Assembly (NCBI GenBank): GCA_973895155.1
Contig: OZ316893.1
Location: forward strand, 16,894,645-16,958,644
Direction: 5' to 3'
Origin: Marsupella aquatica
Lineage: Eukaryota > Plantae > Marchantiophyta
Length of the DNA: 64,000 bases
The notes under the pieces are model-generated. The model ran no database searches, was not told the DNA's origin, and saw only the letters and a program-made list of their open reading frames with translations. This document shows positions 22,820 through 47,223 of the stretch, in pieces (position 1 is the first letter of the stretch; each line of letters opens with the position of its first letter). Made by a program: the position numbers and the translations under genes.

Positions 22820-22977
22820 TCCGGTCTGCAGTGATTAGGTGGCCCGTGTGTACATGGCCTCTAGGAAACGTACAAAGGTTGACCACCCGCCTCTGTTGTC
22901 CGGTCTGCAGTGATTAGGTGGCCCGTGTGTACATGGCCTCTAGGAAACGTACAAAGGTTGACCACCCGCCTCTGTTG
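22820..22977 (+). repeat. Exact 79-bp tandem duplication spanning the BRCT gene start
   Basis: TCCGGTCTGCAG...CCTCTGTTG occurs at 22820-22898 and again at 22899-22977. Confidence 0.95.
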
Positions 22978-23781: not shown

Positions 23782-23957
23782 GGAGTAGGAGTCCCTCATA
23801 TTTTTGTATAAAACACAATTTTGTAATAAATGTGATCCTTGAACTAACTCATCTTGTCATGGTTGGTCGCAGTTGAAGTGATTGTTGTTTCCTGCTGCGT
23901 GGGGTGTGACTGTGAATCTACTTGCTGGGCTCTGTTTGGCTGAAGACTTTGGTGGGT

Positions 23958-24491: not shown

Positions 24492-24817
24492 TAAGATGAG
24501 GACATCTCACACCGGTCTCGCACCTGGCACCTGTGTCTATGACTATACATGATTGGACTCTGATATGGTCATGGATGTACGTGCAGAGGCAGTACATGTG
24601 AGGACAGCGGAGGAGTTGACACCCTCAAACATTTAGGAATTTTGTCTCATTCACTTGAGAATAGGTACATGACTCAGGCACCTATATTTTTTGTTTTTTT
24701 GTTTTTTTGGAACGTTACGTATTTTGGCAAGTACAGTCGGGGGTGAAATCCTTAACAGGAAGTGTATTTTTCACTTGCATAATAAAATGACAGGGTGCTG
24801 AGTGCGTGTGTATAGTG

Positions 24818-27800
24818 ATGGCTCCAAGGTTGCCTCTTCACAACCCATTTAGGATTAGGCATCATGATTCTAAATTGTGGATGCGTGAACAAGCCCGGGC
24901 CGCCCAAGGTAGGAGTAGGAGGATGAGATGCCCATGCACACAGTGCCAAGGATTCAAGTCGTTGAGTTTGAACACTGTGCACCTTCACCTGCTGCGGCAT
25001 GAAAGGCACCCTCGGTGGAGGGTTTGGAATGTACCAGCAGAAGAAGACTCCTCTGATGAAGAGTGGAGAACTGACTTTGTGGATTCTAATACAGCTAGGC
25101 GTAGAGACTACGTAGAGCAGGACATAGACTGTGCAGAGGATGGTCCTGGGGTCCAACATGAGAACGTGGATGACCAAGATGGAGATGCAGAGGCAGTCAC
25201 TGAGGACGGTGGGATGGATGTCCCAAGAATGGTTCAAGAGATTTTTGAAGACCTTGATGCTTTTTACGACACAGTGGAATCAGAAGAGGACAATGAACCG
25301 CAGCCACACATTGGCGACGGCCAAGCTCAACCTGACTTTGACATTGGGGAAGGTGCAGCAGAGAGGGAGTGGGTGTTTGGGGGCCCAAAACACATCAAAG
25401 AAGCTTGCATTCCTATCTACGAGGGGTCGAACTGCTCCAAGCTGGGTTTTGTCGTGTTGTTGTTGAACATCTATGGCAATCACAATGTTCCCAATATATT
25501 TGTGACAGAGTTGTTGACCTTCCTGCGCCGAAATGTGTTACCAGATGGTAATTCAATTCCAAAAAATATGTACGAGGCTAGGAAATTGATGTCTAACCTT
25601 GGGCTGAACTATGTGTCTATTGACGCATGCCCTGATGGGTGTGTTCTCTTTCGCAAAGAGCATGCAGATAAATTGACATGCCCTCATTGTGGTAAGCACA
25701 GGTACAAGAATGTAGGGAAATGTACACACCCTGCCAAGGTTCTTCGTCATTTTCCTCTCATTCCTAGACTACAACGTCTGTTTAGATGCCCTGCCATTTC
25801 CAAGCTGATGACATGGACTCCTGATAACAAGAGCAGTGATGGCCTGCAGCGTCACATTGGAGATTCCAACCATTGGAAATTTGTTGATGAGAGGTGGCCA
25901 CAGTTTGCTGCAGAGAAGCGGAACTTTCGATTTGGTCTATCACTGGATGGAGTAAACCCATTTGGAGACAAAAACAACCGTTATTCATGTTGGCCGGTTA
26001 CGCTGCTAAATTACAACCTTCCCCCATGGATGACTACAAAGAGGTTTTTTGTCATGATGGTGCTGTTAATCCCTGGACCAGCTTCTGTGACCGAGCAATT
26101 CATAGATATCATGTTGGCTCCAGCAGTGGAAGAGTGGAAGACTTTGTGGATAGAAGGGGTGTTAACCCATGATGTTCTGAAGGGGCTTCTTCGACCCAGC
26201 CCCTTTAGACTGCATGCAATTTGTTTGCTGGATATAGCAGATTACCCAGGCCATGGCATCATATCTGGACGAGTGACAAAGGGCTATGTGGGGTGCACAC
26301 CATGTGGGAAAAATGTGACAAGTGAGTGGTCGCATGCCCTGCACAGTATGAAATTTCAGGGGCATAGAAGGTATCTGCCTGTTGATCATCCTTACAGGCA
26401 CACACGGTCTCAAATTGCACACTTCAACAACAAAACAGAGCTTCGTGGCCCACCACAGAGGGTCACCAGAGAGCAAGTCCTGAGGTGGGCAGCCAGGAAG
26501 GCTGATTGGGACAAGAGAAGTGCCACTGATCGAGAACCTGAGGATCCAGTGGTGAAACACGGTGTGAAAAGACAGACCTTGATGGACTTGGAGTTGGAGT
26601 ACTGGAGGGTAATGTACTTAGCCTCCAGCCCCTGTATGATTGCAATTTTAGATTGGAGCAATGGTGGATTGATGTTGGTTACAATCCTCTTATGTGGTTA
26701 ATTAGTGTTTCTGTTGTTGAATTCTTTGCTTTGTGGAGTGCAGGAATTCGAGCCCAGCAAACACAATGTGGACGTCATGCACATTGAGAAAAATATTTGT
26801 GAGAGCTTGCTGAAGTTCTTGTCGGGTGAGAAAGATACAGGAGCAGTTCGAGCTGATATGCAACAGAAGGGGATTCGCCCTCACCTTTGGTTGAAGCCCC
26901 ATGCAAGCAATCCCAATGTACTTCTCAAGTTCCAAGCTCCCTATGTGTGCACACAGGATGAATGGAAGACATTCTTGTATAGATTGAGCTGTCTGAAAGT
27001 GCCCTTTGGCTATGCTGGTGCCTTCAAGAAGCATATTACAAAGAATAAACTTGGCAGTATGAAAACACATGACTACCATGTGTTGATGCAGCACATTCTG
27101 CCCCTATGCCTCAGAGGTCTCATGCAGAAACCAGTCCGTAATGTCATTCTTCGACTGTGCAATGTATTTGGCCGTATATGTGTGAAAGTGTGGGATCCCC
27201 AAGGATTGGAGCAGTTGAAGCAGGATGCTGCTTATGTCCTCTGTGACTTGGAGATATACTTCCCCCCTGCTTTCTTTGATGTTATGACTCATCTCCTAAT
27301 CCATGTGGTAGAAGAGCTAGGGCAGTATGGGCCAGTCAGTACCAGATGGATGTACCCTATGGAGCGATACATGAAGTTGTTGAAAGGTCATGTGAGAACA
27401 TACTACAGGCCAGAGGCTTCCATGGCATTGGGGTACATTAAGGATGAGACGTTGGGATTCCTAACAGAGTACATGGCTGGGTCTGGTGAAGCTATGACAA
27501 GAGTTTGGAAATCTGGTGAAGATGATGGAGTGAGTGGCGAGGTTGTTGAAGGTGTGGGACGTGCTGTTCAGCTGCCTGTTGCGATTCGAGACAAGGCTCA
27601 TTCATATGTGCTGGCAAACACAGAGCCTATGCAACCATGGTGGAGGTGAGTGATTGAATTGACTTGCCTTTGTTGTGATGCTTCTTGTCAGTTCCAAGGG
27701 TGATCTTAGGTTGTCATGTGTTGTTTAGACCTAACTATGCCTGTACCTCATATTGCAGGGAATATGATATGCAAAAAGCTGCACACTCTGGGCAGCAGGA

Positions 27801-28518
27801 TCCCTTCCCACAGTTCGAGCAGTGGATTTGGGTGACAATTCGAGAGCATAGTAGACATCACCCAGATATGGAGAAGGATTTGTATCTTCTATCTGTGCCA
27901 CCACGATTGTCTATTCTGACCTACAAACGGATGAGAGCTTATGGAAATCATTATCGAGTGAGGGATGAGCAGGGTGACCATTGTGTATCATATGATTGTG
28001 GTTTGATTTTTGTGTTTGAGCAGAGAACCTCTGAAGAACAGAGGGGGTGGATGAAGATGGGTTACGTGGGGGAGTTGACCGACATTTGGGTGTTGAATTA
28101 TGGTAACACAAGTGTCCCAGTGATATTGATGAAGGGATCATGGGTGAAATCAGAGTGGCAGAGACCAAGGGCCACCATGAAGCGTGATCATGATGGGTTC
28201 TTGTTGGCCAATTTTAGGTCCAGAGTACCAGAATGGTCTGAGCCTTTTGTTTTCCCTAGCCAAGTTGAACAGGCTTTCTTTGCAGATGTGGAGGAGTCAC
28301 ATGGCTGGAGGGTGGTATGCCATAGCCAAGCACGGAACAGGCGGATGGATGGAAGTAAAGTAGAGTTCAGTTTGGATGACCATGCTGCATTCGAGCATCC
28401 TAGTCATGAGACTGTACTTCCAACTCGGGCAGGGACTGACTACATCCCCTTAACATTGAGAGAGACATATGATGAACCTGGGCAAATGGAATATGATGAG
28501 GTTGATGATTTGCAATAG
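24818..28518 (+). CDS. CACTA TnpD/Tnp2 transposase, 3 exons (24818-26608, 26744-27645, 27759-28518), 1150 aa, apparently intact
   Basis: Contains the CPCxxC...HLLRH N-terminal zinc motif, IDACPDGC, LSLDGVNPF, YSCWPV..NYNLPPW, DVMHIEKN, MKTHDYHVLMQ and RWMYPMERYM. GT-AG introns join the three ORFs in frame (3453 nt). Confidence 0.95.
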
Positions 28519-28695
28519 GCAACAGCTGGCGATTGGCAAGTATGAGGTTGAGGATGACTACCTGCACAGAGTCACATAACGGGAATTGCTGCCTGGAATG
28601 ATGTTTAGGATAGTTGGATATGCATGAAATTGATTGATACTTTGAATTTAGTGTGCTGATTCTCCCTGTTTGGTTGTGGGTGCTGTGCAGAAGCT

Positions 28696-31600
28696 ATGGG
28701 GGAAGAGGGTGATGACATGGAGACAGACATGGGGCTTGGAGAGTGGGGTGAAGAGGAAAGATTGGATATGGATGGAGACCCAGATGCAGGGGGCTCACAG
28801 AAAAATGCACCTGTGCAAGATGCACAGGGCCCTCATCAAGTCCCAGGTAGGTGGGCAGTTAGAGAGAAATCACATAATCCATACCCTAGAAGGAGCCAGA
28901 GTTATTGGCAAGGGACGCCTGATAATTATGATGATGACTATGATGGAGCAGAAGATGGATGGGATGAATATGAACACCCAGAGCGTGGTAGAGACGGGTA
29001 CAGAGGGCAATGGAAAGGTGAGGAGGATGATTGGACAAGTAAGTGCCTTGTGCTAGTGATTTTGTGATGGTAGTAGAGATTTAGCTCAATATGCACTTAT
29101 CTGATGTGTAGCTAGGGCAAAGAGTTTATCTTACAGGTCCATGAGTGTGGCATGTACCTGTTGGTATGCAGACTCTGATTGGGACAATCACGAAAACAAC
29201 AAAGGCCATCCACGTTCAGATAGGAGGCAATCATTCACAGGCGGGAGAAACGCCCCTAATTCATCAAGACAAAGCAATAGGACAGGTGGTCCAGAACCAT
29301 CTATGCGCCAAGGGAGAGGTAACTTGGTCATTGCAGAATTGCTCTGAAGTCCACTGTATATTTGGCAGCGGGATTTATGATTCATACTTACCTAATGTAA
29401 GTGACTGTAAATGGATCCTGTAAATGTGCAGGGACTCCACGGAGGTTTGGACAATGCAATCCAGGCCGTGGGGGGAGATCAGGCCGTGGAGGGACCCCAG
29501 GCCGTGGGGGGACACCAGGCCGTGGAGGGACACCTAGTAGCGCTTCAGGGAGTACCAAGGCAGGAGACAGTAACAAATTTGGTAAAGTAGAAGTGAATTC
29601 CGAAGGTTGGATAACTCCCACATGTGATGGTAAGAACCGTTGGCATTCTGACCTAAGAGGAGAAGTATTGCGTTGGTTAGATTTGAGCATTACAGAGTTT
29701 AGGAGTCAGAACAAAGCTGATTGGGCTGCTATCTGCAAGGACATTCTTGAATGGTGGGAGTATGTTGGTAATGATGGTAAGGGCCCAGTTGAAGATTGCA
29801 TATCAAATTATGCAATGAGGATTTTGAAACAAGAGAGGCATAGGTTGAAAAGGATGTGGATAGACAATGGTTCTAACAGGAGAATGCCACCACCCCCATC
29901 ATTGGAACTGGATCAATGGACACGGTTAATCAAAGGGTTCATGTCGGAGGCTGGACAGAGCAAGAGTGAACTGATGTCAAATGCTCGAGGCAAAGTGAAA
30001 CACCTTCACAGGCTGGGAGAGGAAGTTATGCTCCAGTGAAAGAACAATTGGTAAGGCAGTGACATGCCTGATAGTAAGCCTCAAACTTATCATCTTGCTA
30101 CCATTATTACATTTTCATTGACAATCAACACTTGGTTTCATTCATATGTATGTTGATGTGGACTGCAGAAGAAATTGACAGGTGAAGAACCATCAGCACA
30201 AGAAGTGAGAGAGGAGTTCATGAAACAAAGGAGTGAGGTGACAAGTGTAACTTCCAAACAGGTGATTATGTTGTAATTCTGTATGTTCTGTGACTATTTG
30301 GCCTTGAGCATCAGAAAGAAATGTAGTAGGAAGTAAGCAACCAGTTCTTGGGGACAGTTATCTGAGATATGTAAGCTGTGTTTTGACAGGGAACTGTTAC
30401 AACTCTCACAGAGATGTGTGAACGGTTGAAGTCATTAGAGTGTGGACTCCCTCGAGTGGAAAGTAAATTGGCTGATCGTTTGGATATTGTGGAGGTATCT
30501 GTAGCGAACCTTCTTGCATCAGTGGAATCTAATTTCAAGCTTGTGATTGAAAAATTGGGTGGTTCCCAACCAAACAATGAGGGCAACATTGTACAAAGTG
30601 TGCCCTTGTTAACAAAAAAGGGAATTGGCAAATCTGACACAGGTATGGAAATGACACCGGCCCATTGTTCATTGTGTCCTATGTTCAAATGTTAGAAGTA
30701 AGTTTTCATGAATTGAGTGAATGGTTTGAATGCAGGAAGAGTGGAGGCAGAGAAGGACCCTGTAATCAGTAAGCAGAAGGGCAAGAAGGTTGCTGAGACA
30801 GGTAACCTGCTATGATCCAGTACATTACATTTGAAAAGTGCATGGAGTTTTGTGAAGCTTAAGCCGGTTGGAGGTAATCTTTTCTGTAAGAACTGGTTGG
30901 ATGAACTGGGATCTGAAGTGACATCATGATTGATGTATCAGGTGATTCAAAGAGCAATAATGAAGAAGATGTGCCCAGTGCCTCAGTGACCATAGCCAAG
31001 GAGGTATCAGGTAAGCTGATGCTTTAAATTCCTCTATATGAATGTTGAGCAACAATTCAGTGGTTAATAGATTCAACCTGAATATTGTGGTGTGTTTATT
31101 GATCAACAGAAGCAGACATGGAGCATATGGCAATGGCAAAGAAGGGGAAGAAGGCTGTTCATAATGGTAAGGAGATAGTGACAACTTTGTGGTTGGTGAC
31201 ATGTACATTTAGCACATGTGATGAGTGATTGACTTATGTTGGACATGACACTGAATTGTAGTTGATGCAGAGTTGACAGACTCTCAACCAAGTGGGAGTA
31301 GGGTGAAGCGACGTCGAAACTTGGGAGCAACATTGGATGCAAGTAAGATTGTAGATGCTTCAATTGAAGCAAGTACAATGTTGGCAGATACTGAGATGAT
31401 GTCGCAGGGAAATCCTGCTACACAATCAGAAGTGTCAAATATGGATGCAGATTCTTTGAAGAAGAGTGTAGCCAATTCTCGATCACCAGCACAAAACACT
31501 TGTGCCAAAGTCATGACTCGCAACCAAGGTATGAATAATGTCATGTATAAGCCACCCAGGAAAGCCAAGAAAAACAGCCAGGGTAAGGTGGAGGTGATAG

Positions 31601-31866
31601 CCACAGCAGAGCCAGTCCATAATCTTCTATCATGGGAGGATGACTCGCAGGTATGTGTGGGTACAGGCATTTTGCGACCGGATCATGCAAAATTCCATGG
31701 CAAAGTGGTCCCGGATGACCATGTAGTAGTGTTGTTGACTACAATGATTGTATCTGATTGTAATTTGCCATTTCCGAATAGAGACGATGATCCACCTCAG
31801 GAAATAATTGCAGATGCAGTAGGATCTCTTGTGCTCTGGCCATCAGAGTGTGTTAGTCTGCAGTGA
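28696..31866 (+). CDS. CACTA TnpA-like multi-exon gene (Ptta/En/Spm-like core, Tnp1-like C-terminus), probable 1-bp frameshift near 30015
   Basis: Many small GT-AG exons. The core reads QWTRLIKGFMSEAGQSKSELMSNARGKVKHLHRLG, with RGSYAP in a shifted frame. The C-terminus reads FHGKVVPDDHVVV...LPFP...DAVGSLVLWP. Confidence 0.75.
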
Positions 31867-32293
31867 CTGAATGCAAGTGTAGATAGCATCATGTGAATTG
31901 TGTCACATTTTGACATTGCCTTGGAAAGATCCAAGAAATATCTGTACCAATTTTTCCATTTGGTAAAGAGGATGAAGGAGACGTTGTGTGTGACATTGAT
32001 ATTTCTGAATTCTGTATGTATGAAACAAGTGATTGATGTCAAACTATGGCTCTATGGTGATTGTCTATGATACTTGAATCTATTTTATCATTTCAGTATT
32101 AGTGTGTATGGTATAGAGGAATACTTTGTGACCTTCTTTGTAGTCTATGAAATTTGAATCTATGAATTCATATTAGTGTACATGGTATAGAAGATGGCTT
32201 TCTGAAACTATGTATTCTAATGTTAACATGATGAATGGTGAACTTATAGAGTGAGTTCATTCCAAGTACACAATAAAACATGAATGCAATATG

Positions 32294-35244
32294 TGTTGTA
32301 ACTCATACTTGAGTTAAGTCTACCTTTGGGATAACTACCTATGTAACTACCCTAACTACTTAGGCCGTAGCCACATGTACATATTCTACCAAGAGTAAAG
32401 ATGGAACCAACTCTTTGTCTCATTTCTCCCACAACACGTTATCAGCACGAGCCTAAGACTGGCTGAATTTTTTTTTAGGCCATGACTGATTCACTCTAAG
32501 ACGAAGAAAGAAGGGAAAAGACGTGATTCGAATGTGCCAAAGTTTTTTTTGCGAGAGCTGCTTGAAGCGCTGCACGAGCAATTTTTCTTTGGAAGAAAGG
32601 CCAAGGAAGAATTGATCCCAGCTATGGTGAATTGAATATCAAGGCGCCATCTTATTCGGTGCACGCTTTTCAAGTCAGTATAGCAGTAAGGCAATAGCAA
32701 CAGTCAGTCAGAGCCAATGTTGTTGACGCGTTCACAAATCTGGAAACGAGCCAGCGATTGGAACTCCAGCCATTTCGAGGAGTCGGAAGTTGGTGGCCAA
32801 GGTGTTTTCTCACTCCCTGGCGAGCAAGACCCTCACACCAACTACATCTTTTATTGATAAGATTTCTAGCGAGCACCAGCTCACTGACGGCTGGTCGTGA
32901 GCGCACAACAGATTGGAGTACGACAACCTACTCTATTTCCTGTGTTTGCTTCCAGTTCTACTCGAGTCTACCGCTGGAGGCATTCGAAATGGACGAAGCA
33001 GTAACAGGATGTTGTGATTTCTTTCCCGACACTACGCTTTCCCGACACTATGCTGACAGAAAAGCAGGACAAACATGGGGAAATTAAACCCGTTGGTCGC
33101 ATCACTGGAAAACGAAAGAAGGATTTGGAGCAATCGCGTAAGAAGTGCAAAAAGAAGCAAGTGAAGAAAGTCGCGACTTACAGACCATAGAAAGTAGCGA
33201 CCTCCACTTCAGGCAGCGAGATCATCACACAAGCAAACCGATCCAAGGCGCAGATCACAGCCTCAATTCCATAAGGAACTCGTAAGGATAGCAGGAGATA
33301 AGGAAATTTTTCTTAGAAGATTCGAAGAGAACTCAAGAAGAAAGCAGAACAGAACGGAAGTCTATCCCCAACCGAGGATCACAAGATTACATTCTTCGTT
33401 AGTCATTGATGAGTCTTTTGCCCTTCGAGAGTAACCGATCTTGAAAAGCAGCATTCCCCTCCAGGGTGAAAAGGATAAGAAGAGCAAGACGACAGCAATA
33501 GAGAGAAGACGATCGAAAAGCGTAGGCAGGTCCCGTGAATTACCCTCATTCGCCGTTGCCCCTTCTGGAGAGCAACGATGGGTTTGTTCGAGAGCAGCTG
33601 GTACCCTGAAGGAAGATGATAAAGAAGAGGAAACCGAGCTACTGGATGCTCTAGTTTCTAAGCCGTACTGCGATGATGACGGCCTTTCCTACCGGCATTC
33701 TCACCAGACTTTACTATGTTGATGGAGACACCAAGAGCTTGATCGACTTTACACATCCATGACAATGGAGATTGAAGGAAGATTTCACATTTAGGGAGCA
33801 CGAACAAAAGACCCTCGGAGAAAAGAGGATAAGAGCACGAAGGGAACGCGCGCAGCAAAGAACAAATCTCGCAACAAAAATGCTGAAACGTCGAGAAAAC
33901 GTCGAGAACATACCGCTAAGTGCAAACCCTCCTTAATTGCAAAACCCGTCAAATAGATTTGCGTATACAAAGAACAATGTGCACTGAACCAGGGAAACAC
34001 ACATACTAAGAACGGGGACGAAATGGCATTAAAATGAAAGATATCTATTGGGAATATTACCATATAAGAATTGCCATTCACAAATTCAGGGGGAGAATTG
34101 TTTTTCCCAACGTGCCTACTGCACTTAAAAGTTAAGCTCCGTGCCTACTACACATGGAAGCCAATGAGTGCCTACTGCACATGGAAGTAAATGACAAATT
34201 GAGGGGGAGACCTCAAGTAAGACTTGACATCAAGCAATGTAACCCATGGGATGTGCCTATTGCACAAGTGCCTTTCGCACCAATGAATACCTAAAAATGG
34301 AACTCTATTCCATGCATATGGCAAATCATGAAATCTAAGGAATTTTTATAAATGATTGAATATGGTGTTAACACAATCACTTACCAATACTTGATGAGGT
34401 ATACTGGATATTAAAGTACCATATGATAATATGAGGTACAGTACCAGGTCATAAGGTACCATAAGGTGAGACATGGCATGGTAAGGCACCATAAGAGATG
34501 GTGCGCCATACCCCAATATGATAACCCTACGTTGTGGATATGGTACGTGATGTGGTGCAAATAGGTTATGCCCACACCAAATCTAGGGTTGGACACCCAA
34601 TCCAATTCCAAGGCCATGGATTACACCATATCATCTTCGTTTTGTACTAATACTTTACTTTGTCATGGCATGTAATCGGTGACCATCAAGGAGTCTCCAT
34701 TTCCAGATTGGAAGGAGACACGAGAAACAATCAACCAAGGAAGATCTTCAACAAGCCTATAGTGTTGACAAACACCTTAAGAGACTTTGTAGAAATTACA
34801 CATACACTATATTCTTAAACCCAATTATGTTACACCCATGGGGATGGTAATACTCTTTCCTCCCACAAAGAAAGTAGGGGAGGTTTTAATGAGGTTACAT
34901 CCCCCACTTACACTTTACCATGCAACATGAATTATAAGACATCTATTAGGAGAAGCTTGACATTCATTTATAGTAGACTTGAGATGGCTACACCATTTAT
35001 AAAATAGGCTAGACATAAACAAAACCTATTGTATACCACTGAATATACCCAAAGTAGACTCTTGATTGTAACATTTCAACCCCAATGTTACAAAGGGGGA
35101 GTGTTGTAACTCATACTTGAGTTAAGTCTACCTTTGGGATAACTACCTATGTAACTACCCTAACTACTTAGGCCGTAGCCACATGTACATATTCTACCAA
35201 GAGTAAAGATGGAACCAACTCTTTGTCTCATTTCTCCCACAACA
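32294..35244 (+). mobile_element. Non-autonomous Bianca-type LTR element (2951 bp) with identical 143-bp LTRs
   Basis: LTRs 32294-32436 and 35102-35244 (TGTTG...CAACA) are identical by eye. TSD ATATG is on both sides, the PBS is CGTTATCAGCACGA, and the PPT is AAAGGGGGAG. No gag/pol is present internally. Confidence 0.95.
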
Positions 35245-35817
35245 ATATGTTATTTGTGCACAAGAGTGGGTTCATTCCAAGTAGTATAGTGGGGTCTTCA
35301 TCACTCATATCCAGTTGACATGAAAGACTTATACATACCCCACAAAGTATATTTAAAGACTACCCTCCATAACCTTTTTAGTCGTTCCCAACGACTCATC
35401 ATCGCAGCCCATAAAAGACTAAAAACGACTCACCAAAGCTACCCACACAAAGACTAAAATAGACTGAAAATCCAGTCTATTAAACGACTTATAAACCAGT
35501 TCTATAAAGGACTCAGTTGATTATAGTAACAAAACATACGACTCGCAGTCCTATAAAGGACTAGAGTCCTTCCCAGTCATTTCCAAGTCCTATACGGTAC
35601 TGAATAGTCGTTTAATGGGGTCTAAATACCCCCCGGTTTCTACTAGTGCCCTAAATTCAATGAAATCATATGGACATGTTACAAAAAAATATATGCAAAC
35701 ATATTACAATTTTAACATAATACACCACAAATATATTTCCAGTATACATAACTAATATCTAATGTTTGACAAAAATATTAAGAGAGGATGGTTAGTAAGG
35801 TATGTAGGATCAATCAC

Positions 35818-38561
35818 CTGAAATGCCTCCCTTGTGTCCACATTATTGTCCTTGATGTTACAATTCTCAAAGGACCATGCATAATGGTACGGACATCATC
35901 TGTGATGGTTGGAAAATGTAATATACTCTCTCCCCTGGCCACCATGTCATCCACCTCAACTAGCTTTGCCTTCATATAGTCATGACACTTGGGAAAGATC
36001 CTTGGCCTCCGACTGTTACTTTTGGCCTCTTCATAGAAGTTCCTCCATTCTTCCATGATAGTGTTGTTACTCAACATGAATGTACTCAGTTGCTTCAACT
36101 CCATGGGTGTCAACATGAGGGTTTTGGTGGCCCCTATCAAACGATCCACCTCATCCTCCCTCTCCTCCTTCCAAGTACGGGGAGAGGTACAATCTATTGT
36201 GGCTAATATGTTGTTGCAATAAAACATACTTTCTGCTGCCAAATATCGTGTAGCCATGCTTCCCTCAACTCTTGCACGGTTTCGTACATATCCCTTTAAA
36301 ACTACATGTACCGTTCCAACCAATACATCCACCGACAATGCACAGGACCCGCAATGGCAACCTCATGAACAAGGTGAACAAGTAAATGCACTTGACAATC
36401 AAAAAAGGAAGGAGGGAGGGCCTTCTCCAACTTGCACACCACCTCTGCAGCCAATACCTTCATCCCTGGGATCTCCTCACTATAAATCTCCTTTGAGCAT
36501 ATCCATCTCAACAATTTTCCCAATGACCAAAGGGCATCTTGCACTTCTTCACTTGCCAAACCTATTATTGCCATGGGCAATATATGTTGCAATAGTCGGT
36601 GGTAGTCATGTGTCTTCAAATATCGTGGCCACTTATGATTGTCCTCCATCCCAAAAGCCTTTCAAAGATTGGCTCCATAACCGGTAGGAAACCTCATGTC
36701 TCCTATGCAATTTTGAAACTCCCTTCGTTGTCCAACAGGAAGGACCCATGGAGCTGATGGTCGGTGTTCTATCCCTGTGACTGGATCAGTTGTCACCCAC
36801 ACATCTGGATGCATCTCAAGATCCTCACAAGCCTCCCTGAAGTTAGTGTCCTTCTCTCCATAGAAAGCTTTTATCAATGCCTTTCCCAGATTCCCCTCAA
36901 TGTGCATGGGATCTAATAGATGAAGAATCTTCAATTCTCCCCAATAGGGCAAAGTGGCTAGAATACTCCACCTTGTCAACCCACTACCCTCAAACTGCAT
37001 GGGATCCTCAGGGTCAGCCACTCTATCAGCCAAGTCTTTTCAGTGTGCAAAAGTTGTTGGCTCAGGTACTTCACGCTCATCACCAAGCTGCATATCAATG
37101 GAGGAAAATAGAAGTGGATCAAACCTCATTGCATGTCCCATTGGGAGAAATTTTGTATGCCCAAGATAAATAATCTTGTGAAGGTGCGATGAGTACTTGG
37201 CTATATCACCAAGGCCTGGGCCACAAGTGGAGCAAGCTTTGTAGCCTTGGGTTTGCAACCCACTGACAAAACCAAACCCTGCCAAAAAATACACCAGCAA
37301 ATGATTGTGTTATGATTGACAAAGAAAAGAAAATAATACCATGCATCCTCATATGATGGAAATTAAGTAAGTAAGTACTATAGTGTAACAGTTCTTACCT
37401 AGATAGTCATGCATGGTCCACATACAAATCCCTTTTAGTTTGAAAACCCGTGATAAACCCTCTGTAATCTTTCGACCATCATATGCCCATACTCCCTCCC
37501 ATAATTTTTGGAGTTCCTGAACCAGTAATGCCATGTAGGTGTCCATGTTTTGCACCTTCTTTGGCCCTGGGATAATCAAAGATAACAACAAAAAGCCCTT
37601 TTTCATGGACAACCATGGTAGAAGGTTGTAATTCATGAGAACCACTGGCCAAACCAATGTAGGCCTCCATTCCCCCCAAGTGAATGAGGGCTAACCCCAA
37701 TCGCACATGCCGAGGGTCACGCTCAAAATCTGGCCATGTTGACTCTACATGTTTATGAGCAGGAGAGTCAACTGGTAATCGCATCACACCAGGCTCTGAA
37801 CGATGCTTCTTGTGCCATACCATCAACTCGGCCAAGTCAGAACATCTATACATGTGCAACAAGCGAGGAATAATGAGGAACCAACAAACAACTTTCCTTG
37901 GCACCTTCTGGGTTAGCATGTTTGGCTCATACCGTGGCTCATGACACACGGTGCATACTGTGACATGGGCTTTGTCCCCATGAAATAACATGCAATCATT
38001 CACACACGCATGAATGATATGGTAATCCATGCCAATGGATGAGAGAATCTTCTTTGCATCCTTCTAGGTTCCTGGCAACACATTCTCACTAGGTAACATC
38101 AGGTCATGACAATATTCAAATATGTCTGATAACATAGAATTGCTTGCCTTATGTTTAGCCTGAATGTTCAACAACCCCAATATGGCTGACAAACGACTCA
38201 ACCGAGCACCCTCAAAGATAGGTGTTCGGGCATGTTCCTCAGCCTCCTTCCATTGTTGTTGTCCCTCTGGAGTATGTTGTGGTCGTGGGTCATTTTGGGG
38301 GGCAGCTCCTTCAACACTAATGTCAGGGACACCATCCCCAACATCAGCACCAAACCAATCAACCATGAAGTCATCCATGGCTCTGTCTTGGTCATGCATG
38401 ACCTGGTCATCAGTTCGGGGTGTCTCTTCCTCATCAACATCACTTGGATTATTACTTGACGAGGAATCAACATCTGATGGTTTTCCTTCTTTTGGCATAC
38501 CCATCTCCCGATATGCTGCCCTCAACCTTCGTGGTAACATATGTTGAGAGGGTTGCGCATT
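35818..38561 (-). pseudogene. Main exons of CACTA B TnpD/Tnp2 transposase, disrupted
   Basis: IHACVNDCMLF, DPRHVRLGL, WPVVLMNYNL, DPMHIEGN, LKTHDYHRLLQ and RWMYWLERYM occur across ORFs 35814-38540, with several stops and frameshifts. Confidence 0.93.
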
Positions 38562-38800
38562 CTATGGACAATACAACCAAAAATCCTCTTCATGTATGAT
38601 TTACCAGGTAAAGTAATACATACTAACAAAAAATTAAGTAACTTAAGGTAAAAACATTTGCATATACATAAATAATACAAAGTAAATTATGTATTGCTCC
38701 AAAATGAGGCCTAAATGTATTACTCCAAAATGAGGCCAAGGCCATATACATAAAGGTAAGTCTCTAGTACAAAATATGGCAAAGGTGATGACATGGCAGC

Positions 38801-39631
38801 CTAATCCCACTCATAGTGTGTGAATAACTCATCGCCAGCTCTAATGGTCCTAGTAGCAAGAACTAAGCAATGGTCCTTATGATATCTCTCACCATATGGT
38901 GCCGACATTGGACCATCAGTAAAAACCCACTCACAATTGGCCCTACGCTTGGGCCGAGTCCCCACAGTACTATTTATGAAGCCAGCAATATTCCCATTAC
39001 GTATGGGGTCACCGTCTATCACTCGCTGTTCACTATACCTTCTAGTGCTACCATCAAAAGTATCCATCTCTAAGGCATATGTTTTCCACTCAGGATGTTG
39101 TGCAAGGATCATGTTCCAGTGTCTTCTCTTGTAGATGGGTCCACCGTATGGGAACAAAGTAGGACCCTCTCTACCACAAACACTTGACCCACTCACATCA
39201 TCCACAATGATGTCCTCACAAGCAAAAACCCCATAGCCATGTCTCTCTCCAAGCGTCGAAGCCTTCACAACCCAACGTCTACCCCAAACCACAACCTCCT
39301 CATCAAAACCGATAAAATATGGCAAGCCAAGAGTTGAGGCATCCCACATCTTGATGATAGAAGCACACTTGCCAGTGAACTCACATATACCCCACCTACC
39401 CTCAACAAGTGTTCTGGATGGGTCAGTGGGCGCTCGTGGCCTCCTCCTGGACTCGGGCCTGGACCGCGGTCTTCGTGTCCCACTAGGCACTTGAGGCTAT
39501 TCCTCTTCTTCCCCATGAATGGTGCTCATCCCTACACCCAAGGCTTGTGAAAGTGCATTTCCTATAGCATCTAGAACCCCTTGTGATGGGACATAGGGTG
39601 GTGGTGTCACCACTCTACGCATGTTGGATCC
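38801..39631 (-). CDS. SET-domain (lysine methyltransferase-like) exon inside CACTA B, one in-frame TAG at 39497-39499
   Basis: SET motifs: STLGERHGYGVFACEDI (motif I), LFPYGG, IDG...NIAGFINS (RFxNHS-like), ANCEW, and ATRTIRAGDELFTHY (ELxxxY). The acceptor TAG at 39634-39632 is in frame with ORF 38801-39490. Confidence 0.85.
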
Positions 39632-39729
39632 CTACTTCATCCAAAAACCCACAAACAACCATAGGTGTAAACATTGGTTCACTTGTAAGAATATGAGGAG
39701 AAAATGGCAAAGCATTGTTACACACTCAC

Positions 39730-39960
39730 CATATGGGATGAAGAAGCCCCCGGAGTAAGACCTCTATGACGGCCATGTCTCTCAATATGTTGAGCACATA
39801 CATAAGTCTTTTGAGAAATTTGGCCCACACATCTGGTGCATTGACAGAGTTGTCGAGGTGGACCACGAGGAGGACCGGTAACCTCAGGTTCAGGAGGAGG
39901 TGGTATATCCTCATCAGAGGAGGAGAAGTCACTGCTGGAAAGTTCTGAGGAGAAAGACAT
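39730..39960 (-). CDS. N-terminal exon of CACTA B TnpD (transposase-associated CxCxxC...HxxxH zinc motif)
   Basis: CQCTRCVG...CAQHIERHG parallels CPCTQCQG...VHLHLLRHE in the CACTA C TnpD. It ends at a phase-0 donor ATG|GTGAGT. Confidence 0.8.
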
Positions 39961-40079
39961 ATCCACTGCAAAATTTAGGGTACAACATGATTAGCATAAT
40001 ATAGGCCAACTAGCAACCTTCTAGGTAACAATTGAAGCCACTCAACCATTCCAAAAATGAGGTCCAAAAATAAGTTTCA

Positions 40080-40790
40080 AGTACATAGAAAATACCTGTA
40101 TGGGACCCGGGCTCAGCAGTGCCTATAGGTCATGTGGCTCAAGGAAAATAAGCCAAATCTGGAAGTAGGAAGAAAAAACTACAGATATAACATGCATTAA
40201 AACAATCATTAGCTACCTTGTTCCAAGTTGTTGGTCCCCAAATATATACATGTACATGCAAAAAAAGAGGTCACACATTAAAAACCCTACAAAGTATATA
40301 TTTTTACCTTGCAGATGCCCGGGCTCCCACAATGCATATGCATTAACATTACTCAAAAGTTGAGGAGGTATTGATGGCCTGCAATGTATCATGTAAGCAT
40401 AGATTTTTCTCCTCATTTGTTAGGATTAACCCAAACAGAGAAAAACTCATTCAATTCCCTCCCTTCAACAACTCTAGAAGAGAACCACTTTAGACCCTTG
40501 GAAAACCCTAAAAATTGTAAACCTCAAATGAAGTATGGAAAATACCTCTATGGAGCTTGGGCTCAATAGTGCCTAATAGTTTTATGGTTCAAAAAACCAT
40601 ATCTAAGAGTAGGAGGGAAAAACTGTCCGCAACTCAAGTTGCAATGCTTCTTTTACCCCAAGTTGTGGGCCCCTAAAAATATATATATATATTTGCCAAA
40701 ATATATATGTCCAATGAAAAACAAAACCACACCAATACATACACCTTGTACCTTTCAGATGCCCAAGCTCCCACAATGCCTATGCATTTG
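40080..40790. repeat. Two diverged ~450-bp direct repeats upstream of the CACTA B coding region
   Basis: AATACCT.TATGG...GCTCA..AGTGCCTA at ~40091 and ~40541; CAGATGCCC..GCTCCCACAATGC.TATGCATT at ~40312 and ~40757. Confidence 0.75.
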
Positions 40791-41039
40791 TCAAAATCCA
40801 CCAAAGTAATGGTCACCCTACATCTTATATATTATGTTCCCCTCCTATGTTAGCATAACATCCAAACACCAACCCCCTCTTACCCTCATAAGTTACCATA
40901 AACCCTAAATGCCAAAGCCGAGGGTCTTACCCTCCTAAATTAACATAATCTGACCCTAAACCCTCACCACTTAAGCCCTCCTATGTTCCTGTAAAGAGCA
41001 AATGCCAAAACCCCTCTTACCCTCCTAAATGACCAAAAC

Positions 41040-41790
41040 TGGGAGGGTCGACGCCCAGCCCCTCCAGGTGTCATCCCTCGTTGGAACGACATTGATTGGG
41101 TCAACCTCCTCTTCTTTGGCTTCTCCTTGCCTCCTTCTCCCTTGCTCGGCTGGCTTCCTTGGTGCCGCCGACCTCGTTCTCTTTGTGGGGGTGGCCTCTT
41201 CGTTGTTGGGCCCCTTCCTCTTCATGGCGGCTGCTGTGGACGTTTCTCCAAGCATGGTTGCCTTTGTTCACGCCTCCGTGCTACCCTTTAGGTCCCAATG
41301 TATGTCATTGCAACGGTTGATGGCTTCTCTGATGCCGACGGTTCTGTTCACACATAACAGAAGGTCGTCAAGCTGATTGGCAGTAGGAGTCCACAAGAAC
41401 TCGGCCTTGATGAGCTCTCCTCCTAGGAAGGCAGACTTCAGCTCCCATAGTCAAGCGAGCTCTTGCCGTTCTCGTGCTGCCCTTTCTGATTCCTCATCCT
41501 CATAGGTCCCAATGTACTCAGTTGCCCATTTGAACAGGCATCCCCAGAAATGAGCAACTTGATTGACATTGCTCATGCCCACCTTGAGTCGATGCTCGGT
41601 ATCTGCTCTCGCCCAAAGTGCTTGCCTAAGCAGCTGACAGTCATTGGCTTCTTGCATCCTCTGCTTGGTCAATGCTCGCAAATGAGCCGCCATTCCTTGT
41701 GAACGATCCTTACCCCCCTGCCTGGTTGATCTTCCCATTGGTTACCCATAGCCGCCGGCACTTAGCGCGCCCTAACCCTAATCGCGTTCC
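41040..41790 (-). pseudogene. Copy 1 of a retrotransposon accessory-type ORF, left arm of a head-to-head inverted duplication
   Basis: The peptide KVGMSNVNQVAHFWGCLFKWATEYIGTY is shared with 42000-42266 (+). Confidence 0.7.
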
Positions 41791-41964
41791 TTGCCGTAGC
41801 GCCCTTACTTTTGGCCTTGGCTAGGGTTCCATAGTCACCCTTGATTGTTTATATTTTCCTTTTTTTGTTATTATACTAATGTGTTTTCAGGGTACACTCC
41901 CGGTTTTACCACTTTAACTGGCCTAGTGATTCCTGGCTAGGCATCACAACAGGCAACCACAGGG

Positions 41965-44900
41965 CACAATTAGGGTTAGGGTACGCTAAGTACAGGTGGT
42001 TGTGGGTGATCAACAAACAGTCAGGCAACGGCAGCCAGGAGGGGGGTAAGGACTATTCACCAAGGGTGGCGGCTCATTTTCAAGCACTGATCAAGCAGAG
42101 GATTGTAACGATTGTCAACTGCTTAGACAAACACTCTGGCAAAAGCAGATACAAGGTGGGAATGAGCAACGTCAACCAAGCCGCACATTTTTGGGGATGC
42201 CTATTTGAACGGGAAACTGAGTACATTGGGACATACAAGGAGGAGGAGAGAGCAGCCCAAAAATGATAGGAGCTTGCTCGGCTGTGGGAACTCTAGAAGT
42301 TTGCCTTCCTCAGAGGAGAGCTCACCAAGGCTGAGTTCTTGTGGACGCCTACTGCTGACCAGCTCGACGACCTCCTGTTTTGTAAGAACAGAATTGTCAA
42401 CATCCGGGAGGCCATCAACCGCTGCAATGACAAACATTGGGACTTAAAAGGGTTGCACTAAGGCGCGGACAAAAGCAATAGTGCTAGGAGAATTGTCAGG
42501 AGCGGCCAAAATGAAGAGGAAGATGACCAACAACAAAGAAGCCACACCGGCCAAGAGAACAAGATTGGCGGCATCTAGAAAGCCGACCGAGCAGGGAAAC
42601 CCAAGATAGGAGGAGGCCGAGGAACCCGATGTATCAAACACTTGTCAAGGAGCTTAAGTGACTTTTCTCCTAAAAAACTACCTAATACCTGCTCCATGTC
42701 ATACCAGGGTCACAAAGGATTGACAAAACTTATGAAATGTGCTTGCAAGTTCTGATCAGACCATATATAAGTAGTTTCAACTCTCTACTTCTAGAGAGGT
42801 AGTCCCCGCAACTACTTTTGGACTCACCCACCTCCTCTCTCTACTCCAAGGAGTAGCAAGGGGGATATCCATTCTAAGCTATCACCTTAGAGTAGACCCT
42901 CACAAAACACCCAAGAACCCAAAGTACTTTCCTCTTCAAGCTTAAGCCCCCCTTAGACCCTCAAAGTAGTGTTACCCTTTAACCTTGCCCCCTAGCCTTG
43001 ATTTGGGCCCACACTTCCCCTATTAGCTCTTAGAGATAACTCTTCTCTCTAAGGACTCTTCATCTTGTTCTCACACAAGGCAAGGTACTTTCCACCCTCA
43101 AGAATGATACAATCTTCTCTAAGTCCCAAAGTAGTGCTCCACCTTAACCTTGCCTCCCTGGCCTTGGTTGTGTACCAGCACATCCCCTTCAAGCTTAGAC
43201 CAAGATTGTACCCTAACATGGACTCTTCTCTTGCCCTTATACACTTCAAATTCCCTCACACTTAATGGTCACAATGAAGATTGAGAAGACTCTTGTCATT
43301 GCATACTCAATCCTTACAACAAAAGATCTTCTACAAAATCCTCACACTAAGTATGGACCTCACCTCCTTCTCAAGCTTAGCCCCAACTTAGCAAGGTAGA
43401 GCCTCTACTTTGAGAACTTTGAATTCTGGTCCCTAACAAAGGTAAACTTCCTCATTATATACTATTCTCCTTCCACACCACACCAAGCTTGACCTGGGGT
43501 CCAACTATACCTCCCCAAGTCCTCATAACACACAAAGTCCAACTCTATAGTTCATAGCCCACTCTACAACCTGTTGTTTTGACTCCTTCCAAGCCCTGGA
43601 ACATGCCACACATGATTTGCATGTTTTGACCTCCAAACCTGCTTTCACTTATGGTTCTCCTTACCAGCTTTCCAATTCACTTGAAAGCTCGCAAAAAGAG
43701 TGAGTGAATCTCAAGTTATGCCTAGTCAAAGTTGACCTTATTTTACTTATAACCCTTTTACTACCCTAAGTAAACTACCCCATATACTTACTTCTCTTAA
43801 CTTGATGGACTTACCTAGAGCCTAACTAAAGTGGTATGGGTGCGAGAAAGGTCAGTCCCTAAATCTGGTGTTCATTCCTCTATGTTGGCTCCGATTTGCA
43901 AGATATTGGGACCCCCTCTTGGCCTTGGCTAAAAATATATTTGGGTGGTTCTTTTTCTGGGTTTCCACCTTCACCAAGGGGTGCCTCACCTTCCCCTAAC
44001 TCAGCACAAAATATTTGGGCCCCGACAAATACCCCTAGCCCAAGTTATGTCCGTTTTCCCAAGGTCTTTATTTGTGAGTAAGTAACCTTCCGGTTTTTGT
44101 TTTAACCAGGTCCGACTGAGCTTGGGTTAACCCAAGCCTAGGTTAACTTAAGTAGATGCTATGTGTCAGGATGGGAGGACTCCAAGATTTACTCACGTTT
44201 CTTATGAAGAATTTGATAAGGACATCAATTTTTGTAGTCATTTTCCTGTCTTGAATTCAATCTGAAATGGCAACATTCTCTATTGGATTCAAATGGCAGC
44301 AGGTCAATCGATAGCTCAGCCAGGTTTGCAGCAGCCTTCTCAATCCACCTCAAGCCATCCAGCCTTGCAGGTGATTCAAAATTGCAGCAGAATTTTGCAG
44401 TAGCCATAGCCCACCAATTCGCAGCTAGCCCTCTTTCTTCCTTGCAGCTGGTCCTTACTGATTCACTATTACATTCAATCAATTTGCCAACAGCCTAGCT
44501 CTATTCTCCAGCAGCCAGCCATAGCTTGCCCTTCTCAATGTCGTAGCTAGCAGAGCAACAACACTATTGAGCTTGCAACATGCTTACTAATTAGTTAGCC
44601 ATCCCTTTTTTTTGCAACTCAGCCAGCACTTAGCATCTCGCGCTTGAAGCTAGCCCTCTAATTCTTGTGCAGTAGCCAGTCTGATCAGCCGCCAGCCCTT
44701 CAATTTCGTAACCCACCATAGCTCACAGCCAGCCAGCCAACTCTTGATCAACAATAGTCCATTTTCTCCATAGCAAGTAGCTCAATTCCAATCAGCAGCA
44801 TCAAGGCAACCAGCCAAGTCTGATCAGCAGCATGTAGCCAGGTCAATTCAAGCGGCTCTTCCTTCAATTCAGTCGCCCTTGTGCTCAATTGGCACCTCAA

Positions 44901-46260
44901 GCAACACGCAACATCTTTGGACAGCCTCCTTGTGTTTGACTTTCTCACCGACCTCTTGCTTGAGTCGTGGCTTATATTGTGCATCGTCGTTCCAACACTT
45001 AGAAAAAATTTCTGGATTTATTTTTGGAAAAAACAGCCTTCCCTAGCTGTTTTGGACAGCCCCCAAAAATCATCCATGAGTCCAAAATAACTTTTGAGTA
45101 GATCCACATATTCCCTGGACATAGGACTATGTCCTGGTTTACTAAGATTTAAACAAAACCCTATAATTAATTTTATATAATTAGGTAAATAGGGTTAATT
45201 CTTATGTTTTCCAAAATTCTTCTCAACTTCGAGATGCTCCCAAAAAGTAAGCAAAGGTAACCAAGTACTCCCACAAGTTTCCAGGGATAGAAGGGTCACT
45301 AGTAAACTTATATTTTGACTTATTCCCTAATGTTTTTCCCATTAGCTATTTTTCCCAGGACCCGCTATTTTATTAATGTAAGTCCCACCAAAACACAAGG
45401 AAACCCTAGGTTGAGACCCCACTTGACGTCATACTTCACAAGGGTGCTCTAAGGACCTCCTAGCATCTATGGGAAAAATCTTTAACCAAAACTAAGACTT
45501 CAAGTATCGGGTCATTTTCCGGCCCAATTTAGTCACCTATTCTAACTAAGGACAGAACATTTGCTGCCCTACCATAAAGACCTCACTATCCTTTACACTT
45601 TCTTAGAACAACATATCTTCTTCCTTACATTATTTCCTACTAGCCTTCCCTAGATACTTAGGGTTGCAAACACTAAATACTTTGCTAACACTAAAACGTC
45701 TTTCTTACTATCACTTGTTCAAAAACCAAAAAAATGACAAATTTCTTACATAAACCTATATCAAGCCATTCCATGCAAGGTCAACCCAGTCAACGCCATC
45801 CCTACAAGGGATGATACATGGAAGGGTTGGGCGACGGTCACACCGCAAGCGGTGCAGTTATATTTTGCACGAGAAGAGGATGCATGTTTTACAGCCATGC
45901 AGTCCCAAAAGTACCAAGGCTTCATGGCCGGATCTGGCTTGGAGACCTTTGTTAGATTATCGTGGCTGAAACCGGAGGTGCCGGAATCAGACTTGCTGGA
46001 ATTCGTGGGATCATGGGATCACGAGGCAAATGCAACCAGGGTATATGGGAGGGAATTCTATCTCACTCCCAAGGTGATTGCCAAAGTATTTGGCTTGCTG
46101 ATAGGCAATAAGACCAAGGTAGACACCCAAAAGAACTTGTCAGATAAGGAGTTTAGGTTGTTTCCCGGGCCATCAACAAAGAATGGCTTCTTCCGGAACA
46201 CCTGCACCAACCCGCACATTGGAGAAATGATTGATTTCTTGCGGGTGACAATGCACTGCA
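41965..46260 (+). pseudogene. Copy 2 of the same ORF, split by a 3.15-kb insert, with a plant-transposon-protein-like domain at 45852-46260
   Basis: EEAEEPD (ends 42630) joins VNPVNAIPTRDDTWKGW (starts 45780), colinear with copy 1. GLETFVRLSW...LLEFVGSWD...TRVYGREFYLTPKVIAKVFGL resembles the domain at 50261-50842. Confidence 0.65.
42631..45779. mobile_element. 3.15-kb insert of degenerate, probably LTR-retrotransposon-derived sequence
   Basis: Defined by the interruption of the flanking ORF. No TSD and no intact domain were seen. Confidence 0.45.
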
Positions 46261-47223
46261 ATTTATCTAATATTAACTAACTCTGAAGATTCTTTTGTCC
46301 AAAGTTGAAGGATGAAATTTCCAAAACATTCATTTCAAAATTCCAAAAAGGTGATCTGAAATTTCCAAAACTCAAAATTGAAGTTTCCAAAAGCATACTT
46401 TTAAATTTCCAAAACCTAGTCCATTGGATGAATTACGAAAGGCAATGAAAAAAGGACTCCTTCGAATGAATGACTGAAATTACATCTTTATAATAAATGG
46501 GACACTAACGGTGGTGCCGTACATATAATTTGATATCCCTTCTCCATGGGACTTCATTGTTGGGTTGTTTGCTAACTACAACACCGTCTTCCGCTAAAGT
46601 GACTACAAAGTTGAATCTCAACCTTGGCCAACACATATTTGACTAGACAACTACACTAATCATATCAAGAATATTTGTGAACTAACAAATGAAGGATAGC
46701 TTTGTCATAGACACCCATTTCTCCTCTTCGCTCTCTTGGGCCCCTGCCGCCCTTGCCCTCTATCCTAAACTCCGTCCATCTTCCAAAACCCCTGCCGAAG
46801 CCTCCCCTCTCCCCTTCGCATTCCGCCATAGTCCAATTGTGTCCGCCTTCAAGCTGAAATGACTCCTCTTCTCCTCTCCTATGCTACTGGGCCAAACCGA
46901 AAGGAATGATTCCAGGGTTGCGCATTGCCCTTTACCCCTCCCTCCCCATGGGGCTAGTTCTAATCTATATGAAACATATTCACTAAATTATATCCCTAAT
47001 ATGAACTACTATGTCCTACCTACTCTTTACTCTAACCTTGAGTTGAGTGTAGAACTCTACAGAATTTTGATGTTTGTCTGTGAACTTTGTTGACTACTTT
47101 CACAAACTCCCTAAAATTTGTGGCCTTTTGCACATTGATTAGTTTCATGCTGAGTGAAGTCTTCCTTACGCGACATCCACAATATGATCTCTATGTGCCA
47201 AGGAGTAAGTTCTAAAGTTGTCA

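Follow-up and report, generated by a model that had tools for sequence, protein, structure and literature searches.

The DNA considered here, the window, is a stretch of 64,000 nucleotides (nt) from the liverwort Marsupella aquatica (GCA_973895155.1, contig OZ316893.1, positions 16,894,645 to 16,958,644 of the forward strand), which contains on its minus strand a CACTA (EnSpm) transposon. This copy is dead and belongs to a family with relatives in mosses and liverworts. In this family, an exon for a SET domain is located between exons 1 and 2 of the gene for the transposase, TnpD. The best explanation, which is favoured by a modest measure, is that two proteins are likely made from one pre-mRNA: the transposase and a protein in which a zinc module precedes a SET domain and which is predicted to methylate lysine, most likely on chromatin. 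The layout of the locus, its conservation, the selection acting on it, the fold of the SET module, and the conservation of its catalytic residues can be regarded as nearly certain. From these, we infer the splicing, the enzymatic activity, the histone substrate, and the action on the element's own chromatin, the last of which is plausible.

In the proposed mechanism, exon 1 would offer a single donor to two possible acceptors. Its joining to the near acceptor at 39631 would give a protein of 340-350 amino acids (aa), made up of the zinc module, a flexible linker, and SET, and terminated by the stop at 38801; its joining to the far acceptor at 38561 would give a full-length TnpD with the usual N-terminal module. 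The SET protein would be an accessory cargo on which selection acts only during the active life of the element. Its role would be to serve the element, most plausibly by opposing silencing, in the manner of TnpA and VANC (see below). A first-pass annotation, made from the sequence, had proposed an alternative splicing of this kind. What stands of it is the SET fold, the presence of SET throughout the family, the purifying selection, and the conserved splice sites; what does not stand is a preferential preservation of SET in this copy and the absence of a precedent.

Splice Sites and the Probable Sharing of Exon 1

The features on which the first-pass annotation was built were all verified in the sequence: exon 1 (39960-39730) with its phase-0 donor, the 98-nt intron, and the phase-0 acceptors at 39631 and 38561 (Table 1). 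The SET exon does lie inside TnpD intron 1, and the product, which had been put at roughly 350 aa, is 353 aa long when exon 1 and the SET exon are joined. Exon 1 encodes a serine/acidic and proline-rich stretch and then CxCxxC-x13-H, a putative zinc module (CQCTRC...HIERH). The SET exon encodes a linker of around 74 aa followed by a conserved module of 202 aa (39409-38804), which comprises an N-terminal extension and the SET domain. The premature TAG reported in the linker at 39499-39497 is indeed present and is the sole in-frame stop before 38803-38801; in relatives, the linker is open. The TnpD acceptor, in which CATAG precedes 38561, is also in phase 0, and the TnpD frame opens directly 3' of an in-frame stop. 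A polyadenylation signal 3' of the SET stop was considered and rejected: TGTA occurs six times in the 239 nt of the spacer, which is the density of an ordinary TnpD intron (four in 166 nt), so this count is no evidence for such a signal.

The splice sites are conserved in relatives, 25 of whose 27 loci entered the DNA alignment (L024 and L027 were left out). The GT of the donor is kept in all nine loci with homologous sequence at that place, the AG of the SET acceptor in 15 of 16, and the AG of the TnpD acceptor in 14 of 15, and all are in phase 0. Between the window and its relatives, introns are 31-48% identical versus 70-79% for exons. Indeed, the intron between exon 1 and the SET exon, which is 98 nt long here and 111-118 nt in relatives, is 44-48% identical versus 70-75% for exon 1, and the spacer from the SET stop to TnpD, which is 239 nt here and 136-147 nt in relatives, is 31-34% identical. 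One donor and two conserved in-phase acceptors, the arrangement that characterizes Spm-type splicing, are thus found.

The nature of exon 1 is suggested by a profile of 11 exon 1 sequences, which aligns to the PF13963 region, the N-terminus of an intact and unsplit TnpD in a neighbouring CACTA element (hhalign E 2e-4, probability 46; 0 of 2000 shuffles scored as high). Moreover, when exon 1 is joined to 38561, the distance from CxCxxC to P[IL][FY]EG is 152 aa versus 161 aa in the unsplit TnpD. Exon 1 is therefore likely to be the N-terminal (Transpos_assoc-like) domain of TnpD, a resemblance that makes exon sharing likely; together with the restored spacing, it implies that exon 1 is likely required for TnpD, in which case the SET exon, with its fixed stop, has to be skipped. 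To judge from the sequence, the sharing of exon 1 by alternative splicing is probable, and the SET exon likely uses exon 1 too.

Several observations, however, weigh against this view. Most of the loci belong, as copies, to a single Sphagnum-type family, which reduces the splice-site tallies to two or three independent families, and to two in the case of the TnpD acceptor. Exon 1 of locus L004 matches PF13963 with an E of 0.017, which is below the cut-off, and no Pfam match was found in exon 1 of either the window or locus L003. An in-frame Met is found near the start of both downstream exons (SET codon 4 and TnpD codon 8) in the window and in the Sphagnum-type copies. The annotated fusions of exon 1 to SET are gene predictions, and the protein P0143 may come from either RNA or an intron-less copy; the models P0028, P0082, P0130, and P0175 join SET to TnpD instead. 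Finally, the case for splicing is made from DNA. Apart from these points, none of the joints listed for contigs from four sequencing runs of unrecorded type (34500-43000) matches 39730>39631 or 39730>38561.

Fold and Catalytic Residues of the SET Module

The open reading frame (ORF) at 39496-38804 matches the Pfam SET profile, PF00856, with an E of 2.5e-6 and 28.3 bits (cut-off 22.4), and an Atlas search also gave PF00856 as the top match (score 0.97). An AlphaFold model of the SET module has a predicted local distance difference test (pLDDT) value of 81. With this model, Foldseek found 337 Protein Data Bank (PDB) chains at E<=0.001 (E 7.8e-8), and structural comparison with solved SET domains gave a best Z of 12.5, with a root-mean-square deviation of 2.6 over 124 aligned residues. 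The prediction of a SET fold is thus borne out by both the profile and the model. The identity to all solved SETs is 17-30%; a PDB search with the single ORF sequence found no SET at E<=10 but only a chance match, and a profile search gave LegAS4, which also ranked first with Foldseek, as the best match (E 1.4e-4), the best eukaryotic match having an E of 0.008.

Among 57 aligned members of the family, the GxG motif is kept (G58 in 54 and G60 in 55), the lysine-channel Tyr or Phe (Y/F-x-G) is found in all 57, and the Asn N146 is found in 49. Among the rows that reach the site, E194 (GxEL) is present in 51 of 52 and the catalytic Tyr, Y199, in 47 of 49. GxG is responsible for the binding of S-adenosylmethionine, and the NH-motif Asn, GxEL, and Tyr are further SET motifs. 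Two positions ahead of the catalytic Tyr is a small, non-aromatic residue, which, in SET chemistry, would permit multiple methylation. The family's SET protein has a good chance of being an active lysine methyltransferase.

Other features speak against so simple a picture. The NH-motif His is found in 0 of the 57 rows, and the chain ends three residues past the catalytic Tyr, without post-SET cysteines; the C-tail after this Tyr has seven residues or fewer in 28 of 49 rows. The NHS His and the post-SET segment are marks of the canonical histone lysine methyltransferase subfamilies. The module cannot be placed in any of these (Set1/MLL, Set2, SUV39, E(z), SET8), as it has neither mark and no similarity at the level of a subfamily. 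Since Set1, SET8, PRC2, MLL, and SET7/9 are tied within 1 Z unit, no substrate can be read from the comparison. In an AlphaFold model of the full-length Sphagnum protein, the SET part is confident, but the zinc module has a pLDDT of 46-58 and the linker is low. A histone substrate at the element's own copies is a tentative proposal, somewhat short of an even chance.

Selection and the Spread of the Family

Ratios of nonsynonymous to synonymous substitution (dN/dS) were estimated by the Nei-Gojobori method, with a codon bootstrap, between the window and loci L002 and L003. For SET, dN/dS is 0.19 versus L002 (95% interval 0.12-0.31) and 0.22 versus L003 (0.15-0.35); it is 0.14 for exon 1 and 0.10 for TnpD, and looser in the linker (0.31-0.65). 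Among copies of the Sphagnum-type family, SET values range from 0.24 to 1.21 and are mostly 0.5-1.1. The first-pass annotation had asked for a SET dN/dS below 1 across copies, and this holds between families (0.19-0.22), with near neutrality among the copies of one family. This combination of constraint between families and decay among copies is the pattern of a function at the level of the element, and neither a host gene nor a passive capture would produce it; SET is, on this sequence evidence, a maintained cargo of the element and not a host gene. A point on the other side is that, of the six loci with both exons, only one is fully open.

For the SET ORF, 52 relatives of about its own length and six longer ones were found. 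Among 1.84 billion representatives, 93 relatives of SET were found, most of them in the same divergent group, and none of these 93 matches is a close canonical host SET. Named relatives belong to several species of Sphagnum, to Calypogeia fissa, and to Riccia sorocarpa, and the close ones are all bryophytes; the Sphagnum SET cluster at 90% has 360 members. Annotated proteins of 343 aa (Sphagnum) and 351 aa (Calypogeia) correspond exactly to exon 1, linker, and SET. A CxCxxC..H-type motif was found upstream of SET in 27 of 217 SET-bearing proteins, one of which has F in place of the first C; the 27 include Sphagnum, Calypogeia, and Riccia models, and their SET identity goes as low as 35-43%. 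Many of the remaining proteins were called on short contigs, where there was no room for a spliced exon. P0143 is a single ORF of 423 aa with both the motif and SET, from a Logan contig of 2,141 nt.

The SET exon was expected in other copies of the family, and this is what was found. A TnpD exon follows 136-147 nt past the SET stop in 15 of 27 loci, nine others ending too early and three being broken inside SET, and the Riccia models P0130, P0175, and P0218 run from SET into TnpD. The order of zinc exon, SET exon, and TnpD exon thus recurs in the Sphagnum-type loci and in the Calypogeia and Riccia gene models. Moreover, thousands of variant contigs from the four sequencing runs mentioned above tile exon 1, SET, and TnpD within 34500-43000.

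SET identity to the window is 78-80% for Calypogeia (P0001) and Sphagnum (P0003), and about 43% for Riccia (P0129). In a quick tree of 53 of the 57 rows (four of less than 150 residues were dropped), the Calypogeia and Sphagnum SETs fall into one clade with a support of 99. Synonymous divergence (dS) of SET between the window and the Sphagnum-type loci is only 0.6-0.8. A horizontal transfer between Calypogeia and Sphagnum is possible on these sequence comparisons. Two distant members of the SET group in Calypogeia fissa, P0208 and P0229, have another N-terminus (a repeated C-x-C-x-H with a weak DUF5763 match), suggesting that this SET may occur in other contexts too. A viral origin was also considered and rejected: in a scan that did not take in prokaryote genomes, none of the 63 candidates from viral contigs proved related.

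Known Systems

SETMAR, in which SET is joined to a transposase by splicing, is a single-copy domesticated host gene with a host SET N-terminal to a mariner transposase. The family described here differs from it in being a multi-copy mobile cargo with the transposase piece at the N-terminus.

In maize Spm and Arabidopsis Spm3, TnpA and TnpD arise by alternative splicing, as the first-pass annotation had taken to be established, and TnpA has a sequence-specific anti-silencing activity (10.64898/2026.08.24.746577, PMC13547354, PMC4158355). The likeness to the present proposal is that a splice choice in one CACTA gene yields both a transposase and an accessory protein; the difference is that TnpA binds DNA and has no described enzymatic domain, whereas here, the second isoform would contain an acquired SET and the common part would be a zinc module. 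No mention of SET cargo was found in two of these sources (10.64898/2026.08.24.746577, PMC13547354). VANC of VANDAL (MuDR) is likewise a transposon-encoded accessory protein that acts on the chromatin of the element, but it is a separate gene without SET, and its function has been shown experimentally (PMC8616336).

SET cargo itself has precedents. The closest is in the red-algal Plavaka elements of the EnSpm superfamily (Bostrychia preprint, bioRxiv 10.1101/2025.02.11.637652), where the PAG2 gene combines an adenine methylase with SET. As in the family described here, PF00856 is a long-lived cargo of an EnSpm-superfamily element and a proposed chromatin modulator. However, PAG2 is a separate gene in a three-gene cassette, with SET fused to a PF01555 N6-adenine methylase, whereas in the land-plant family, as judged by domain content and layout, SET lies inside the transposase gene and likely borrows exon 1. 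PF01555 was found neither in the SET and TnpD ORFs of the locus nor in P0001, P0003, P0129, and P0143. Elsewhere in the window, an ORF at 63227-63829 (minus strand) has a weak match to N6_N4_Mtase (PF01555, E 4e-4), the domain type of PAG2. SET genes that resemble histone methyltransferases are also carried in Phytophthora by HarbingerS and MuDR families (PMC12730594, citing Kojima and Jurka 2014, Repbase Reports) and by proto-Helentron-Pi, as a SET ORF (PMC4067079). These differ in belonging to other superfamilies and having oomycete hosts, and SET in the Helentron is encoded by its own ORF without introns and has around 50% similarity to Clr4, whereas the window SET has 17-30% identity to the solved SETs.

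The first-pass annotation knew of no described system in which a CACTA element carries SET on an isoform. A search that did not extend to Repbase and subscription journals found no paper that describes a SET exon in a bryophyte CACTA or an isoform in which SET shares an exon with the transposase, and nothing on either was found in PMC8616336 and 10.1101/2024.09.22.614159; for SET cargo as such, the implied lack of precedents is not supported, given those that include Plavaka. What is unusual here is the place of SET in the transposase gene, with a shared exon as a likely further feature.

Alternative Explanations

One alternative keeps the same splicing and changes the target: SET would methylate a non-histone protein (TnpD, an accessory protein, or a host silencing factor) or would be a non-catalytic reader or decoy for lysine. 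The lack of the NH-motif His and of a post-SET segment, the very short C-tail, the lack of a nearest histone methyltransferase subfamily, and the family-specific N-terminal extension and inserts would all fit with this. It is nevertheless improbable, as the remaining catalytic positions are all kept across 24-80% identity, and LegAS4 also lacks that His (YINFS) and yet is reported to methylate H3K14. LegAS4/RomA resembles the window SET in its minimal core, in having N-x-S for NHS, and in the non-aromatic residue two before the catalytic Tyr; it differs in being bacterial and having ankyrin repeats. In view of the low identity (25-30%) and the tie by Z with eukaryotic SETs, this likeness allows no claim about origin or substrate.

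Another possibility is that no exon is shared, SET (263 aa) and a TnpD without the zinc module being separate proteins that start at their own Mets, with exon 1 used in only one of them. The in-frame Mets near both acceptors and the 263-aa form in many annotations are consistent with this, as is the reported alternation of spliced and split-gene layouts in the Arabidopsis Spm families. It is distinctly unlikely, though, since both acceptors are conserved and in phase 0 with a single donor, the Met at the start of the SET exon is missing in the Calypogeia P0001 and Riccia P0129 models, exon 1 is just 98 nt from the SET exon, and TnpD would lose an N-terminal module that is present in frame in the neighbouring TnpD. 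Very unlikely is a single long protein in which exon 1, SET, and TnpD are spliced together into a SETMAR-like fusion. The models P0028 and P0082 (Sphagnum) and P0130, P0175, and P0218 (Riccia-type) do join SET to TnpD, but YEW[DNS] is followed by a stop at an unchanged position in the window and in every locus that reaches it, the Sphagnum models lose the catalytic C-terminal motif and use differing junctions, and a conserved in-frame donor before the SET stop was not seen. The idea of a passive capture of a host-gene fragment (Pack-CACTA), or of a host gene hit by a transposon, is largely refuted. CACTA elements do take up host fragments (PMC8616336), and the neighbouring CACTA has PHD, BRCT, and F-box-like ORFs; however, the contrast of purifying selection between families and a nearly neutral decay within one family, the size of the Sphagnum cluster, the identical position from Sphagnum to Riccia despite an identity of about 43%, and the lack of a close canonical host SET among the 93 matches all go against it.

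The Whole Element and Its Surroundings

Table 1. Features of the SET element and of the CACTA element inserted into it (window positions)
Feature	Positions	Strand	Remarks
Exon 1	39960-39730	minus	ATG start; 231 nt = 77 codons, phase 0; followed by donor GTGAGT
Intron, exon 1 to SET exon	39729-39632	minus	98 nt; GT-AG, with TAG at 3' end
SET exon	39631-38801	minus	phase-0 acceptor; frame stop 38803-38801; last residues YEWD
AT-rich spacer	38800-38562	minus	239 nt; predicted 3' untranslated region (SET isoform) and 3' portion of the long TnpD intron
Main TnpD exon	38561-37397	minus	start of Transposase_21; stop at 38066; frameshifting deletion near 37700
TnpD middle exon(s)	37276-35817	minus	end of Transposase_21, DUF4218; stops at 37042 and 36664; frameshift near 36303
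Last TnpD exon	15663-15133	minus	DUF4216; frameshift near 15420; stop 15135-15133
Second, unrelated CACTA	15664-35648	plus	19,985 bp, complete; terminal inverted repeat CACTAGTAGAAACCGGGG (18 bp); 3-bp target-site duplication
Probable 3' end of SET element	14060-13479	minus	CACTAC terminus at 13479; cluster of short subterminal motifs

The first-pass annotation had placed the locus at 38561-39960. Its features are right, but the element is far larger, with its last exon and CACTA end at 15663-13479. TnpD appears to end at 35817; three loci reveal its continuation at 15649-15168, the second CACTA having inserted right where the last TnpD exon begins. Transposase_21, DUF4218, and DUF4216 were all found by Pfam, in pieces in the window and as four open exons in L002. 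Near 13479, the subterminal motifs number 22 in 582 nt versus 1.4 per kb across the window, and the relative L004 has a CACTAC 5' end at 6302 with the same enrichment. The TnpD domains and the CACTA terminus with its subterminal repeats make the element a member of the CACTA/EnSpm superfamily; a transposase of the Transposase_21 type does not belong with HarbingerS or the SET-bearing MuDR. In the 64-kb window, no matching terminus or target-site duplication was found for the 5' end, and none of the loci examined has both termini in one copy.

This copy is dead on both products. TnpD has three clear stops, three frameshifts, and the 19,985-bp insertion, plus a fourth stop (37693) in a frameshift overlap that may be unreal; the deletion near 37700 removes the SDG motif, with the first catalytic Asp, which L002 retains. 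The first-pass annotation had contrasted an open SET with a heavily broken TnpD. However, there is one lesion in the 1,059 nt of the SET isoform versus 7-8 in the 3,148 nt of TnpD, a difference within chance (binomial P 0.30, with eight lesions), and a preferential preservation of SET in this copy is accordingly rejected.

No TnpA/ORF2 accessory gene was detected in the window copy. In the Sphagnum-type family, a multi-exon antisense gene lies between the 5' terminus and exon 1 (L004:7037-8839, minus strand; also in L005 and L011); it has no Pfam match and a weak likeness (E 0.025) to the Transposase_24-like ORF of the neighbouring CACTA, and no such gene was detected in the window. Because this family has another upstream gene, the idea that SET replaces TnpA is unsupported. 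The ORFs at 41025-41741 were also considered as a part of the SET element, but they are absent from the 27 loci and seemingly belong to another repeat. Upstream of exon 1, a short coding-like repeat forms an inverted duplicate (41140-41782 and 41969-42596, 74% over 656 nt), with a related motif at 45738-46280; it is likely a separate mobile element that hides the 5' end of the SET element. An intron of around 150 nt in the Sphagnum-type TnpD (L002:2628-2777) is missing at 36676-36682 of the window, apparently by clean loss.

The second CACTA contains a nearly open TnpD (24791-28518) with PF13963 in frame and the Transposase_24-like ORF (29401-30039). Upstream of these are ORFs for NSD-like PHD fingers (21740-22255), a twin BRCT (22918-23781), and an F-box-like stretch (23916-24491), so it may be a second element with cargo of the chromatin-reader type. 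Within it, an insert of 2.95 kb (32293-35244), with identical 144-bp direct repeats and TG...CA ends, looks like a young non-autonomous long-terminal-repeat element.

Significance

A bolder version of the proposal would be an old splice switch of bryophyte CACTA elements, in which the zinc exon heads either the transposase or a minimal histone methyltransferase that lacks post-SET and is unlike host enzymes; the latter would be tethered to the element's own copies, where its mark would block silencing, and the lineage may have crossed between peat mosses and liverworts. In this complete form, it is rather doubtful.

The plant transposon counter-silencers with a shown function, VANC and TnpA, act by binding DNA and recruiting or blocking the enzymes of the host. 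If the two-protein explanation is true, a land-plant DNA transposon would have its own lysine methyltransferase, obtained by splice choice, and would thereby write marks directly. The long-standing idea of SET as a cargo would become open to assay through the intact copies that sequenced genomes of Sphagnum and liverworts contain, such as the loci of KAH8930834.1, KAH8972646.1, and CAM6097688.1. As regards annotation, hundreds of 'SET domain' models in Sphagnum are likely transposon cargo and not host chromatin genes.

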